Origin: Escherichia coli
GTDB taxonomy: Bacteria; Pseudomonadota; Gammaproteobacteria; Enterobacterales; Enterobacteriaceae
DNA: 64,000 nt
Direction: 5' to 3' (one strand)
Assembly: GCF_016026235.1 (NCBI RefSeq)
Contig: NZ_CP065613.1
Both the position numbers and the translations under genes were made by a program. The notes beneath the pieces were generated by a model that saw only the letters and a program-made list of their open reading frames with translations, did not search any database and was not told where the DNA came from. Below, piece after piece: positions 12,875-19,127 of the stretch; the stretch's first letter is position 1; each line of letters begins with the position of its first letter.

Positions 12875-13678
12875 TTATCTCCAAGAGGCAAAGTGGCGCT
12901 TAAAAAACAAACACAGCGGATTTATATGATGTTTGGCAACAGCATTAACAGCATAGTGGGAGAAATAATAAAGAGATTTAAACAGACCAAACTTTAAATA
13001 TTTCCTGTAAAAGGCCCATTGTGAAAATATTATTTTTAATTTATTTGACGAGAGTGTATCGGTGCCTACTCGATAATAGGCCAGTGTTTCGTTCAAACAA
13101 TATGCATAATCAATTTTATCTAAAATGCTCAGCCATAGTGCCATGTCCTGTCTTTTCCTGATTGTTGGCATAAACATTTTACCAAGAGATGAAGTATCAT
13201 ATACAGCTGTCAAGCAACCTATTACATTAGTCTTTAATAATTCAGAATAATTAACTTTAGAAACAGGATTAATTTGGGATAAAAGTTTCCCGCTAAAACT
13301 AACCTTTTGATATGAGGTATAAGTGAAAGCATAATTATTTGAAAGCATAAAGTCTATCTGTTTTTTTATTTTCTCTTTATGCCAAAAATCATCACTATCT
13401 AAAAAAGCGATAAACCGACCTTTAGCTTTACTGATCGCTATATTTCTTGACATACCAGCCCCATAATTCTTCTCATTTGAAATGAGAACAACTCTTGAAT
13501 CTTTTTTTTGATATTCCCTGCAAATAGACACTGTATTATCTGACGAACAATCATCGACAATAATCATTTCTATATTATTATATGATTGAGATAGAACAGA
13601 ATCAATTGTACATCTAATCGTTCTTTCAGAATTATATGTGGGTGTTATGACTGAAACTAAATATTTATCGGTACTCAT
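12875..13678 (-). CDS. Glycosyltransferase, family 2 (last gene of O-antigen cluster)
   Basis: 267 aa; ITPTYNSERTI ... VDDCSSD ... FLDSDD motifs typical of GT-A fold GT2 enzymes; AT-rich. Confidence 0.8.
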   Translation of the reverse strand: MSTDKYLVSVITPTYNSERTIRCTIDSVLSQSYNNIEMIIVDDCSSDNTVSICREYQKKDSRVVLISNEKNYGAGMSRNIAISKAKGRFIAFLDSDDFWHKEKIKKQIDFMLSNNYAFTYTSYQKVSFSGKLLSQINPVSKVNYSELLKTNVIGCLTAVYDTSSLGKMFMPTIRKRQDMALWLSILDKIDYAYCLNETLAYYRVGTDTLSSNKLKIIFSQWAFYRKYLKFGLFKSLYYFSHYAVNAVAKHHINPLCLFFKRHFASWR

Positions 13679-13837
13679 AGAATCATCTCAAACTTACATA
13701 AGTTTCATTATATAATGTCATGTTTATCATATCCATCCTTGGTAGCTTATTAAGAAATTTCACATATTAAATATTTATCAAGTATTTCATTAACATCCCA
13801 CCTTAATATAAAAAGCCGTTAATTAAGAGAGTAACTA

Positions 13838-13937
13838 CAAAGCAAAGCAAAGCAAAGCAAAGCAAAGCAAAGCAAAGCAAAGCAAAGCAAAGCAAAGCAA
13901 AGCAAAGCAAAGCAAAGCAAAGCAAAGCAAAGCAAAG
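13838..13937. repeat. Pentanucleotide microsatellite (GCAAA)x20 on + strand, (TTTGC)x20 in the operon direction
   Basis: Perfect tandem array visible at 13838-13937, between gne (ends 13989) and the GT2 gene (starts 13678). Confidence 0.95.
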
Positions 13938-13988
13938 ATGGTTTTATAAAAATATTGACAGTGAATAAAATAGCACATTAAAATCGTC

Positions 13989-15002
13989 TTATTTATATCC
14001 TTTGGGATTGTTTTTTTGCCAACGCCAAGAATCAATTATCATTGTATCTAAATCATATCGAGAAGACCACCCTAATTCTAAAAATGCTAGAGATGGATCA
14101 GACCAACATTCAGCTATATCACCAACTCGACGAGGTTTGAAACAATAAGGGATATCAATTCCAGTACAACGTTTAAAGGTATTTATCACATCAAGAACTG
14201 AATAACCAACCCCTGTACCAAGATTATATACTTTATAATTTCCCCCAAAATTACGGTGTTCTAAAGCAGCTATGTGCCCTTCAGCCAAATCCATAACATG
14301 AATATAATCTCTAATGCCTGTTCCATCAGGTGTAGGATAATCATTTCCGAATACTGATAAATATTTTAGATTACCAATAGCCACTTGAGTAATATAAGGA
14401 ATTAAATTATTTGGAACACCATTAGGATCTTCGCCTAATAGACCAGAAGAGTGGGCTCCTACAGGATTGAAATAACGCAAAATAGTAATACGCATTGTTG
14501 GCTCAGCCAAAGCTATATCCTTCAAAACCCTCTCTACTATAAGTTTTGAAAAGCCATATGGATTAGTTGTTCCGCCAACGCTACTATCTTCCTTCAAAGG
14601 AATAGTTTCAGGCTTACCATACACTGTTGCGGAGGAGCTAAAAATAAAACTAATAACGCCAGCGCGCATCATTTCTTCAAGTAAAACAATAGTTCCGTTA
14701 ACATTGTGATCATAATATTCCAATGGATTTGAAACAGATTCAGCGACGGCTTTTAATCCTGCAAAATGAATAACATCTGTAATATCATGATACTGGAAAA
14801 TATGTTTGAGTTTTTTCCTATCACGCACATCACCATGATAAAATAGAGGCCTACGTCCACAAATTTTTTCGACCCTTTCTAACGACTTAGACGATGAGTT
14901 CGATAGATTATCCAACACCACCACATTTTTTCCGTATGATAATAAGGATAATACAGTATGTGAACCAATGTAACCTGCACCACCAGTAACCAAAATAGTC
15001 AT
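13989..15002 (-). CDS. gne: UDP-hexose 4-epimerase, GalE family (probably UDP-GlcNAc 4-epimerase Gne)
   Basis: 337 aa; LVTGGAGYIGSH ... HFAGLKAVAESV ... YxxxK context; GalE-family SDR inside an O-antigen cluster. Substrate (UDP-Glc versus UDP-GlcNAc) cannot be decided from sequence by eye. Confidence 0.8.
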   Translation of the reverse strand: MTILVTGGAGYIGSHTVLSLLSYGKNVVVLDNLSNSSSKSLERVEKICGRRPLFYHGDVRDRKKLKHIFQYHDITDVIHFAGLKAVAESVSNPLEYYDHNVNGTIVLLEEMMRAGVISFIFSSSATVYGKPETIPLKEDSSVGGTTNPYGFSKLIVERVLKDIALAEPTMRITILRYFNPVGAHSSGLLGEDPNGVPNNLIPYITQVAIGNLKYLSVFGNDYPTPDGTGIRDYIHVMDLAEGHIAALEHRNFGGNYKVYNLGTGVGYSVLDVINTFKRCTGIDIPYCFKPRRVGDIAECWSDPSLAFLELGWSSRYDLDTMIIDSWRWQKNNPKGYK

Positions 15003-15348
15003 AAAACTCCTTATATTTCATCTATCTGCCTAGGATATAAAACAAGAATATAAACACATTATAAATAGTATAAACTGTGAAAGAATAAAAATTTAGAATA
15101 GTTAAGCCCAATGTTACTATAAAAATACAATATGCAAGTATACGTTATTTTTCTAAACATCTCGACATATTGTATGAGTCTAACACTATATTGCATTTTT
15201 TTCGTGTAAATTATGTTCTAGTGGTGTCAGTAATTCGAGCAATTTATGAGGCCTTTTATTCTTGTACAGTATGCAATATTGAGCCTGTTTATGATTGACA
15301 TATTCAGATTTTCAAAGAGCAATTCTTCATTAAACTCAATAAACGGCT

Positions 15349-15634
15349 ATCTCAGTGATCGGTTAAAGCGCTCACAGATGGTGTTCATTTTCGGCGTATC
15401 GAGATAAGCCTATTGGTGCCTGATAGCGGCTTCCTGTAGCTTTTTGTCAAATTTTCCCAGGAACTCTTCCCCATAATCGGGTATATTCTGGTTGATTCCA
15501 ACAGGTAACAACCGAGCTTGATGGCAGAAGAAACTCATGATTACATCACTGTTAAGCGACGTTACCGCCACCGCCAAAGCGTAGTTGCTGCGTTCGTCAA
15601 TCACGGTAATAACATAACGCCGATTCTGAGCTCA
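15349..15634 (-). pseudogene. Remnant of an rve-type (integrase-core DDE) transposase gene, frameshifted and truncated
   Basis: Minus-strand frames give ...RRYVITVIDERSNYALAVAV... (VIDxxSR-like first catalytic-D region) and, in another frame, ...PKMNTICERFNRSLR* (xERFNRxL C-terminal integrase-core motif); local G+C looks higher than the surrounding cluster. Confidence 0.45.
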
Positions 15635-15944
15635 ATATAAGCTCACCGGTCTTTAGCGGGCTAATAGTACCTTGGACTTGAAGTCTGGGAACCCAGTTAC
15701 ACCAGTATTAGCCACATTTTATCATGTGCTGCCTAGCTCATTCCTCCAATAGTGGAGACGCTCGGGCAGGCCAAATGCTACTGTTCACACTACAGATTCA
15801 GACGGTCAAAAATCTGTTCTTTTCCAAGGTTGAGAAGTCCTATTCTAATTCATCATATTTCTTTCAAAATTTCTGGATGTCATAGTTTTGTAAGACATAC
15901 TAGAAAGATTTACTACTTGAGATAAGCACTTCCGAGCCTATATA

Positions 15945-16307
15945 TTAAACGCGTATTGATACACAAAAATTTTCTGCGGATGCATTGATTCCATGTCTTT
16001 CCCTAAAATGCAGGGTTTTCATTCTTAATTTTGCAATATCAGGCATGGCATTGTATTCCATCGCATAGATTGTTGCACGGTAATGCCCGAAACACCTGAC
16101 GCCGATATGTTGGTTCAACATAACAATCTCTCCTTTCTTATCTGGAGACAATTGCAACATCTCTGAAAACTTACACTCTGCCCATCGTGTACATAACCAA
16201 AGACAACAGAAATATGTCACGCCTTTTTCCAAATTCCAATTTATATTCCTTACTCTTATAACACAAGGAGTATCTGAATATATAAGAGTGAAGGAGTGCT
16301 TTGGCAA
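15945..16307 (-). CDS. Hypothetical protein or gene fragment of unknown function
   Basis: 120-aa ORF in the decayed segment between gne and wzy; no recognisable motifs; may be a remnant. Confidence 0.25.
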   Translation of the reverse strand: MPKHSFTLIYSDTPCVIRVRNINWNLEKGVTYFCCLWLCTRWAECKFSEMLQLSPDKKGEIVMLNQHIGVRCFGHYRATIYAMEYNAMPDIAKLRMKTLHFRERHGINASAENFCVSIRV

Positions 16308-16752
16308 AAATATTTAATTCAAAGATATAAAACACAATCGATTTAGTATCAAAAGATTACTCAGTAATCTTTCACCAAATAAATTAGTTCAAAATAACAC
16401 TACAGCAATGGCAATAAAACCATTCCATGAAATAGCAACATAAACACGCAAATAGAATTTCCACGTAAATTTATAACACTTACCAATCCAAAACATTATT
16501 TATTATAGATTGTATTCATGGGATTATCACCTGGTTCAGTTATAGATTTGTGATCTATGTAGTTCACTATTCTTACAGTTCTCAAAAAACTTAAATTAAA
16601 TTGTTGCGCTATTACCCTATAGTCTTTAAATACCCATAAAAACAAAGGCAAAAACCAATTTGTTTTACAGATATCTAGAATAAGATAATATGTCAACAAT
16701 TAACAAGTTACTACTATTGTTTGTTAATAAAAACCTGCAATTAAAATAATAA

Positions 16753-18015
16753 TCATGCATTAACCGAACCCCTTCTTATTAATCTTTTTTTATGACAAAT
16801 ATAAAAAGATGAAAATATATATATATATATTATTTTCATATATGCAACATTCAAAAATATAACCTCGCCTTTATAATGAAAAGAAAAACTGAGTATCGTA
16901 ATCATTAATACAACTATTTTAGGTTTGATGCTATTAGCAGCATAAATAGTCAAAAAAATAAAAAATAAAAAATAAAAAATAACCGATGGTACCGCACCCA
17001 AAAATAATGCTAACCGCATAAATCCAGCATCGGTCCCGAGATAATATGTCCCATCCTTTAACGTATAGTACCCATCACCAATGAAGATCTGTTTTTCTGT
17101 TAACGGAAAATACATATTAAATAATGCATCTGTAGATGTTGTTGATAACTTTCCTGAATCTAAATAATAATATAACATTTGAAAAGAATAATCCGAATAT
17201 TTTTTCAAGATATCATAAACATGTTCATTTAAAAAAAATCTCCAAAAAATAAATAAAAACAGAGATACATAAATCAAAATTTGAAGCGCCCGATAAAACT
17301 TCTTTTTATAATCAGAGCAAATAAAACTATATACCCCTCCGAGGACAAACCCCAAAACAGCCGTACGCCCAGCAGAAATTGACGCGAACAGCAAGAGTAT
17401 GATAAAAAATAATTTAAAAAAGAAAGGAATATTACAGTCTTCCTCATTAAACCAAACAATTGAAAGAAAAGATAATAATGACATAATTATAGCAAGACCA
17501 AAGGCAACAGAACCTGATATACCTAATCCCCTGATGCCTCCATATGTATTACTCATAAATTCTATTTCTTCTTTTGTTCTAATAATACTTTGAATATAAG
17601 CATTTATACTGGGAAAAAACATCATCAGAATAATAAAAAAGGATTGTAAGAGGGCAATTAGAAAAAACAATTTCAACACATTATCATTGTTATGCTGGAT
17701 TAAGTGCGACGCAATTATAACAGAGCTGAATAATGCAGCGAAATTATTAAAGATAACCCCCATGATAGATAAATCTCCTGTACCATTTAATACCAATGAA
17801 ATACAAGAAAAAAAGAGCATGCAGGCCAAAGACAAAAACGCAATAAAAAATATTCTTGTACTTATTAGACTAAAAAAAACAGTCCTTATCCTGATATTTG
17901 TAATTAAATAAATCAAGGAGAAAATATATATAAGATAGCCTGAATTAAAAAAAACAGGGATGCTAAAAGCAAACACAAATAAAAACAACAAAAATACATC
18001 AAAAAAAACCTTCAT
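16753..18015 (-). CDS. wzy: O-antigen polymerase
   Basis: 420 aa, highly hydrophobic multi-TM protein with a larger hydrophilic loop, adjacent to glycosyltransferases and wzx; identity as Wzy is by elimination (the other polytopic protein has the Wzx pattern). Confidence 0.7.
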   Translation of the reverse strand: MKVFFDVFLLFLFVFAFSIPVFFNSGYLIYIFSLIYLITNIRIRTVFFSLISTRIFFIAFLSLACMLFFSCISLVLNGTGDLSIMGVIFNNFAALFSSVIIASHLIQHNNDNVLKLFFLIALLQSFFIILMMFFPSINAYIQSIIRTKEEIEFMSNTYGGIRGLGISGSVAFGLAIIMSLLSFLSIVWFNEEDCNIPFFFKLFFIILLLFASISAGRTAVLGFVLGGVYSFICSDYKKKFYRALQILIYVSLFLFIFWRFFLNEHVYDILKKYSDYSFQMLYYYLDSGKLSTTSTDALFNMYFPLTEKQIFIGDGYYTLKDGTYYLGTDAGFMRLALFLGAVPSVIFYFLFFIFLTIYAANSIKPKIVVLMITILSFSFHYKGEVIFLNVAYMKIIYIYIFSSFYICHKKRLIRRGSVNA

Positions 18016-19127
18016 AAAAATTCCTTTTGTGACACGACCCGATAATAAATATCAACCATACGCTTTGTGTTTTTATTTATATCAAACATTTTTATTATTG
18101 TATCTCGGTTATATTCAATCGAACACCTATATTGATTACTATCTATTAATTTCACACACCTTGAAAAAACAGATTTCATGTCAATATCATCATGCAGATT
18201 CAAATACATTGCATGATTTCCTAATAGCTCTCTGTTTGCATCGATGTCTGATACTATCGGAAAACAATTACATAAAACGCCCTCCATTAAAGATAATGGA
18301 GCACCATCATTGCTAGGAATACTAAGAACAAAATCAGATTTATGAAGAATCGACCTTAATTCCTCTTTTTGAATAAACCCTATTAAATTTACTTTATAAT
18401 TATCTCCCTCACATTTTTTTGTGAGTTCTATTATCTTATCATGTGTGGTCTTTGACGATGAGCGGCCTAGTATATTGATATTAAAAAAGTACCCTTTACA
18501 ATCATAATCTTTCATATCAATAACAGCTTCTAAAAAGGACTCTATGTTATAAATATTATCCCAATTTCTTACAGAAGTTATTGTTATACATTTATCGTCC
18601 CTTATGCTTGACGTTTTTTCATCTGAAAAGAACCCCACATCTACACCATATTGAAAAGTATGTATTCGCTCCTGATTCACATTGAAATACGATATTATTT
18701 TATTTGTTATATGCTTGGCGGGTGAATTTACAACACAAAAACTTTTCATTGCTTTTACATATATTTTTCCTAATATCCCTCTCTTTTTTATAGTATTGTT
18801 AATGTCACTTCCCCATACTGAGAGTATCTTCTTTACTTTTCTAGGCAAAACACATGAAATTAAACCATAAGAACTAAAAAAATGGACATGAACCAACTCA
18901 GGCTTTAATAAAAAAAAATAAAAAAGAAGAAAAACAGGTGCGTATATAAAATCAAATTTAGTTTTTGTAAGTCTTGGTATCTTATATATCTCTCCTATTC
19001 CAACATTCTCAGAAATACTTTTGTCATAGTGTAGTGTGACAATTCTATAATCAATATATTCTTTGGAACCATGAATCCAGTTACTAATATGACCAGATAT
19101 CATAGGGCCAAAAACAAGTACTCTCAT
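18012..19127 (-). CDS. Glycosyltransferase, GT-B fold (GT4 / family 1 type)
   Basis: 371 aa; C-terminal E-x7-E-like region ...LSLMEGVLCNCFPIVSD...; overlaps neighbours by 4 bp. Confidence 0.75.
   Translation of the reverse strand: MRVLVFGPMISGHISNWIHGSKEYIDYRIVTLHYDKSISENVGIGEIYKIPRLTKTKFDFIYAPVFLLFYFFLLKPELVHVHFFSSYGLISCVLPRKVKKILSVWGSDINNTIKKRGILGKIYVKAMKSFCVVNSPAKHITNKIISYFNVNQERIHTFQYGVDVGFFSDEKTSSIRDDKCITITSVRNWDNIYNIESFLEAVIDMKDYDCKGYFFNINILGRSSSKTTHDKIIELTKKCEGDNYKVNLIGFIQKEELRSILHKSDFVLSIPSNDGAPLSLMEGVLCNCFPIVSDIDANRELLGNHAMYLNLHDDIDMKSVFSRCVKLIDSNQYRCSIEYNRDTIIKMFDINKNTKRMVDIYYRVVSQKEFL

Follow-up and report, generated by a model that had tools for sequence, protein, structure and literature searches.

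The tracts that form SSR contingency loci, among them the poly-G/C tracts of C. jejuni and H. pylori, are long (typically at least 8–9 G/C, or tetranucleotide units numbering about twelve or above) and usually lie near the 5′ end of the gene; to our knowledge, isolates compared in pairs nearly always differ in tract length. A known route to O-antigen variation in Salmonella is loss of wzy by deletion between direct repeats on either side of it. In the 1990s, Morona, Daniels and colleagues reportedly described wzy (rfc) genes of Shigella flexneri and Salmonella that are AT-rich and use rare codons, and the translation of these genes is said to be limited by the rare codons. Sites of programmed -1 frameshifting include U UUU UUA in HIV-1 and A AAA AAG in E. 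coli dnaX. Reviewed examples of contingency loci are the tetranucleotide repeats of H. influenzae lic1A, lic2A and lgtC and the poly-G tracts of Neisseria lgtA, lgtC and lgtG (PMC11868660, PMC2651432). An analysis of coding SSRs found that they are avoided in E. coli (PMC3315296), and the O-antigen phase variation known in enterobacteria is epigenetic, through Dam/OxyR control of gtr operons (PMC11868660).

The wzy gene considered here carries two tracts, (AT)8 and a four-unit heptamer array. Like the contingency loci of LPS, LOS and capsule genes, it has a non-triplet repeat within a surface-glycan reading frame, so that one unit shifts the frame. Unlike them, its tracts are short and 3′-terminal, the heptamers are invariant and (AT)8 varied in 2–3 of about 170 assemblies; the intragenic non-triplet repeat is thus present, but neither the corresponding length variation among isolates nor a frameshift abolishing the product was found. 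Slippage at wzy, if it acted as a switch, would share with the gtr and Salmonella routes the outcome of O-antigen heterogeneity, but those routes are epigenetic or recombinational, unlike slippage of an intragenic microsatellite. The gene resembles the wzy (rfc) genes of S. flexneri and Salmonella in its low GC content, its abundance of ATA, TTA and TTT, its polytopic product and its little conservation between serotypes; unlike in the literature on translational limitation, the question here is repeat instability. With the C-terminal coding SSRs of Lin and Kussell (2012, PMC3315296) it shares a hotspot, (AT)8, at the extreme 3′ end, where frameshifts are weakly selected, and a tract largely explained by amino acid sequence and codon usage; there is no substantive difference from that case. 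We consider it very probable that both tracts are incidental coding microsatellites, by-products of AT-rich codons for hydrophobic membrane helices. They are ordinary for an AT-rich wzy, do not form a contingency locus and are, on the evidence, unimportant as a biological switch, a functional switch being unsupported; slippage is possible in principle and occurs rarely at (AT)8.

The window, i.e. the whole 64-kb stretch of DNA that was analysed, contains an O-antigen cluster of 29–31% GC with the order gnd, GT2, gne/galE, IS remnant, wzy, GT4, GT2, wzx, onward. The wzy ORF has 28% GC and 45% T on its sense strand, and its neighbours encode two glycosyltransferases, one of the GT4 and one of the GT2 family, and a Wzx-type flippase (Polysacc_synt). 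The degenerate IS remnant that separates gne from wzy (window about 15190–16120; L001 4487–5422) is annotated as ‘integrase core domain-containing protein; frameshifted; internal stop’ and recurs in each of the four complete O143 genomes. A 1.4-kb wzy region is 99.2–99.3% identical to that of four complete E. coli genomes, in which RefSeq names the gene ‘wzy: O143 family O-antigen polymerase’ on the basis of similarity to a reference protein. The exact protein of the window corresponds to the E. coli records STM86371.1 and TYR55893.1, and near-identical proteins are carried by Shigella boydii. It is a predicted polytopic inner-membrane protein (20 helices by model prediction, about 10 hydrophobic segments by hydropathy analysis) encoded in an O-antigen cluster together with wzx and glycosyltransferases, as is the case for Wzy, and it has the fold common to Wzy, WaaL and the SEDS glycosyltransferases. 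Comparison with Pfam and NCBIfam at E-values up to 0.01 gave zero matches, Wzy_C (PF04932) included. Wzy proteins are often too divergent for the family models of these collections, so the missing match weakens the model match and not the Wzy assignment. Five residues (R162, R217, D329, R334 and K382) are invariant in an alignment of 52 homologues.

Table 1. Positions of the features discussed in the text, numbered along the window
Feature	Position	Strand or placement	Basis or remark
wzy, O143 / Shigella boydii type 8 O-antigen polymerase	16753..18015	(-)	420-aa ORF
(AT)8 dinucleotide tract	16815..16830	(-)	sequence and Tandem Repeats Finder
Remainder of the sense-strand 4-base T run adjoining (AT)8	16812..16814	(-)	fourth T is 16815
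(ATTTTTT)4 heptamer array (sense), i.e. AAAAAAT x4	16953..16980	(-)	sequence and Tandem Repeats Finder
Alternative-frame TAA ending the RefSeq pseudogene	16934..16936	(-)	annotation span
Perfect (CAAAG)x20 microsatellite, (CTTTG)20 on the cluster sense strand	13838-13937	intergenic	Tandem Repeats Finder
Terminal GT2 glycosyltransferase gene	12875-13678	(-)	

Both tracts had been reported by the initial annotation, and their positions within wzy (Table 1) as well as the peptide strings quoted for them (IYIYIF and FYFLFFIF) proved to be right. Tandem Repeats Finder describes the dinucleotide tract as 8.0 copies of period 2 with 100% match, and the heptamers as 4.3 copies of AAAAAAT, also with 100% match, over 16953–16982. 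An extra A precedes the first AAAAAAT unit and creates an A7 run at 16952–16958 (T7 on the sense strand). Read on the sense strand, the heptamers encode residues I346-F-Y-F-L-F-F-I-F-L355 in a predicted helix (341–358), and (AT)8 encodes I396-Y-I-Y-I-F401 midway along the last predicted helix (390–414). The repeat units of both are thus non-triplet within the coding sequence, and both lie late in the gene, at codons 346–355 and 396–401 of 420. On the sense strand, wzy also has T8 runs at four places in its 5′ and central portions (18001–18008, 17947–17954, 17872–17879 and 17231–17238, at CDS positions 8, 62, 137 and 778); judged by common standards, these are no less liable to slip than the two tracts, and a frameshift in them would do much more harm.

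Whether the tracts exceed chance hinges on the null model chosen. Each occurs only once in the 64-kb window, and neither was recovered in 100 dinucleotide-preserving shuffles of the window or in 5000 dinucleotide shuffles of the wzy coding sequence. A synonymous null model was also used, in which codons were permuted among positions of the same amino acid so as to keep the protein and the codon usage of the gene (20 000 trials). AT runs reaching 16 nt or more then appeared in 3.2% of the shuffles (P = 0.032), and stretches of period 7 reaching 28 nt or more in 5.4% (P = 0.054); over-representation beyond protein and codon usage is therefore marginal, these P values being uncorrected for two tracts. 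Base composition alone does not account for the tracts, but the Wzy protein with its codon usage largely does. Codon usage in wzy is strongly skewed, with TTT for 54 of the 60 Phe codons, TAT for 26 of 27 Tyr, ATA or ATT for 44 of 54 Ile and TTA for 24 of 54 Leu.

These data suggest how the tracts may have arisen. Horizontally acquired and very AT-rich, wzy encodes a polytopic product rich in Phe, Ile, Leu and Tyr; with its codon preferences, I-Y-I-Y-I-F reads ATA TAT ATA TAT ATA T, and I-F-Y-F-L-F-F-I-F-L reads as a T-run pattern of 7-nt periodicity. On this reading, the tracts have no regulatory role. Zero matches were obtained with Rfam on both strands of 15000–19000 (E up to 1), and promoter and terminator scans around the wzy tracts gave counts no higher than those in shuffled sequences. 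Related genes show a similar arrangement: the gene of a Wzy-like homologue of Proteus mirabilis (37% identical protein, 24% GC) has (TA)6 at the homologous K-I-I-Y-I-Y motif and T-run quasi-repeats in the homologous Phe-rich helix, and in a second Proteus homologue the IIYIY motif is encoded with an interrupted (AT)4.

Homologues of Wzy in Gallaecimonas, Shewanella, Proteus, Photorhabdus and Acinetobacter are 412–450 aa long and can be aligned to their end. Residue K382 is invariant in both alignments made (14 and 52 sequences) and G383 is nearly so among the 52 homologues, while in the alignment of 14 sequences H380, Y381, E384, V385, Y392 and K394 show either no variation or at least 90% conservation. 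The conserved residues of this region are all encoded downstream of the heptamer array; beyond F401, the homologues are conserved neither in sequence nor in length. Judging from these lengths and from the residues conserved downstream of the heptamers, the 420-aa frame is the real wzy frame. For the same reason, a frameshift at the heptamers would entail the loss of two helices and of the conserved motif around K382, and one would expect purifying selection to purge them; heptamer constancy would then reflect selection rather than a low mutation rate. The (AT)8/T4 stretch is, on this reading, a weak slippage hotspot, at which rare indels may persist because only the unconserved last 19 residues are altered and C-terminal frameshifts are weakly selected. 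A Wzy with an altered tail presumably still works.

Length variation was assessed in 10 DNA copies; besides that of the window, these came from four complete genomes of E. coli, three S. boydii drafts, a Logan assembly and an ENA metagenome contig. The length of the heptamer array is constant across the 10, as is that of all six wzy T runs of 7–8 nt, including the four T8 runs. However, the perfect four-unit repeat is peculiar to the haplotype of the window: position 16966 is T here and C in the other nine copies, a synonymous TTA-to-TTG difference (A-to-G on the sense strand) that interrupts the array in 9/10. The dinucleotide tract is (AT)8 in eight copies and (AT)7 in the remaining two, Logan SRR32281290 and ENA ERZ27269039, whose DNA equals that of strain D10 minus one AT unit and which may come from the same sample. 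The (AT)7 product (P0099, 407 aa), recovered by a targeted exact look-up, is on the commonest E. coli haplotype. In S. boydii GCA_002735485.1, (AT)8 is followed by TT instead of TTT, a 1-nt deletion. Both variants keep residues 1–401, with every conserved position, and replace the last 19 residues; the normal tail is SSFYICHKKRLIRRGSVNA, and the variant tails are IFLYLS and HLFIFVIKKD, the latter resulting from the S. boydii deletion in a Wzy of 411 aa. In an alignment of 1401 nt both indels are confined to 19 nt, which shows raised local mutability at the (AT)8/T4 stretch, a weak indel hotspot, even if the (AT)7 allele came from a targeted look-up. At the level of assemblies, intact 420-aa Wzy is present on about 168 public contigs among the products listed for a 90%-identity protein cluster (16 of its 63 members seen).

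Exact look-ups in a collection of about 15 billion proteins revealed none of the products predicted from slippage at the heptamers (+7/−7) or at T7 (+1/−1), nor those of +1 T in each T6 run and in the nearby T5 run, nor that of (AT)9. Among JGI metagenome contigs, nothing was found with a pattern allowing 15–45 nt between the heptamer flanks. A lack of length variation across isolates, which the initial annotation had named as refuting its idea, thus holds for the heptamers and very nearly for (AT)8, and nothing supports phase variation. Its claim that slippage would frameshift the C-terminal part of the polymerase is borne out only by the rare (AT)7 allele, which affects the last 19 residues, and not by the heptamers (0/10 with a length change). 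N-terminally short S. boydii Wzy proteins (336 and 327 aa) were considered as truncations and rejected, since the ATG and the full ORF are intact in the DNA; in the three S. boydii drafts (GCA_002735485.1, GCA_002735445.1 and GCA_002735535.1) the deposited wzy starts at Met85, which is a start artefact of the gene caller.

A repeat of another kind, (CAAAG)n, lies 3 kb from the wzy tracts, in the gap that separates the stop codon of gne/galE (52 nt upstream of it) from the ATG of the terminal GT2 glycosyltransferase gene (160 nt downstream). Its copy number is 20 in the window; the four complete O143 genomes have 25, 21, 19 and 14, and another two draft assemblies have 22 and 21. With 14 to 25 copies in these genomes, it is hypervariable. 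This variation indicates that true hypervariability is detectable in these genomes, and the wzy tracts behave otherwise.

RefSeq annotates wzy as a ‘frameshifted’ pseudogene in 4/4 complete O143 E. coli genomes, although each contains the intact 420-aa ORF. The pseudogene covers 16934..18015 of the window (1082 nt; 1235..2316 in L002–L004). The alternative frame of wzy is open only at CDS positions 942–1082, and these limits imply that the RefSeq evidence protein (about 360 aa) differs by +1, −2 or +7 nt within a 141-nt stretch, which holds a T5 run and the heptamer/T7 tract. The name ‘O143 family O-antigen polymerase, partial’ is given to fragments that stop short of residue 266, whereas a 379-aa fragment and all 420-aa Wzy proteins are named ‘hypothetical protein’; this naming pattern fits an out-of-frame reference protein. 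Fourteen candidate evidence proteins of 360 or 362 aa, with either +7 nt or +1 T (in the T5 run, the T7 run or each of the T6 runs in turn), were constructed from two to four haplotypes, and all were absent from the 15-billion-protein collection. The ‘frameshifted’ flag is probably caused by a reference protein that is out of frame near the heptamers. As the 420-aa frame is conserved across genera, it seems more likely that this reference protein is wrong, or a rare variant, than that all the genomes are. Taken at face value, the flag would mislead pseudogene counts as well as inferences of a rough phenotype from annotation.

Several observations run against the ordinary reading of the tracts: the synonymous-shuffle P values are mildly low (0.03 and 0.05), an (AT)7 allele and a 1-nt deletion adjoining (AT)8 do exist, and the RefSeq evidence protein implies a frame change within the heptamer-bearing 141-nt stretch. 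The two indels (two assemblies and one S. boydii assembly, respectively) and the implied frame change in CDS 942–1082, together with the non-triplet units of both tracts inside a surface-polysaccharide gene, are also what would be cited in favour of a contingency locus, in which wzy would be shifted out of frame and back by slipped-strand mispairing, either at (AT)8 or at the heptamer/T7 tract. Such a locus would produce either long-chain versus semi-rough single-unit O antigen or a modified polymerase, with possible escape from phages or antibodies. We regard it as quite unlikely, because heptamer length is constant and the array is interrupted by a substitution in nine copies, because intact ORFs on about 168 contigs face 2–3 altered tails, and because the tracts are away from the 5′ end of the gene. 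Moreover, the variants retain residues 1–401, leaving no obvious OFF states, and the four T8 runs located earlier in wzy are equally invariant, whereas the (CAAAG)n repeat differs in every complete genome. E. coli also possesses mismatch repair and avoids coding SSRs (PMC3315296). In the literature on O143 wzy and on wzy phase variation, no report of slippage in any wzy was found. A more restricted switch can be imagined, in which (AT)8/T4 changes the cytoplasmic C-terminal tail of Wzy at a low rate while the enzyme is kept; past (AT)8/T4, all three reading frames encode hydrophobic residues. If so, the exchange of tails could tune the stability of the polymerase or its interplay with the chain-length regulator, leading to heritable heterogeneity in O-antigen chain length. 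This we judge very unlikely.

A further alternative is recoding, either -1 frameshifting on the slippery heptamer T TTT TTA (CDS 1044–1050) or transcriptional slippage on T7, by which a fraction of ribosomes would make a truncated Wzy of 360 aa ending at the alternative-frame TAA. As in HIV-1 and dnaX, a heptamer of the X XXY YYZ type is present in the correct phase, and the -1 frame is 11 codons long and ends at the TAA where the RefSeq reference ends. Unlike in these cases, however, the motif is altered in nine of the 10 copies, the A-site codon being TTG and not TTA, and the 91 nt downstream fold no better than shuffled sequences (MFE −11.2 kcal/mol, z = −0.96). Frameshifting by -1 would cost the product two helices and the invariant K382, the alternative frame encodes nothing conserved, and slippery T-rich strings are expected by chance in a gene with 45% T. 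Programmed -1 frameshifting was therefore rejected, the motif being present but the stimulatory structure and a conserved trans-frame product being absent, and recoding as a whole appears extremely improbable. That the tracts or their variants are errors of sequencing or assembly is highly improbable as well. AT-rich, low-complexity DNA is prone to error, the 1-nt deletion occurs in a single draft (L005) while two sister assemblies lack it, and the two (AT)7 copies perhaps represent one sample; on the other hand, independent assemblies, complete as well as draft and produced in several countries by several pipelines, carry identical tracts, and the (AT)7 allele was obtained by two different assemblers. 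Reproducibility excludes an artefact for the tracts themselves; for the 1-nt deletion in one assembly, an artefact is possible.

The (CAAAG)n repeat is a better candidate than the wzy tracts for repeat-driven variation at the O143 locus. A 66-aa ORF at 13835–14035 (-), whose translation reads FALLCFALLC..., was rejected as a gene, as it is the pentanucleotide repeat read in frame (5 nt × 3 = 15 nt = 5 aa). The O143 cluster has one glycosyltransferase beyond what its structure requires (review PMC7685785). The repeat is upstream of promoter-like hexamers at 13735–13707, and it might be used to type O143 / S. boydii 8 strains.
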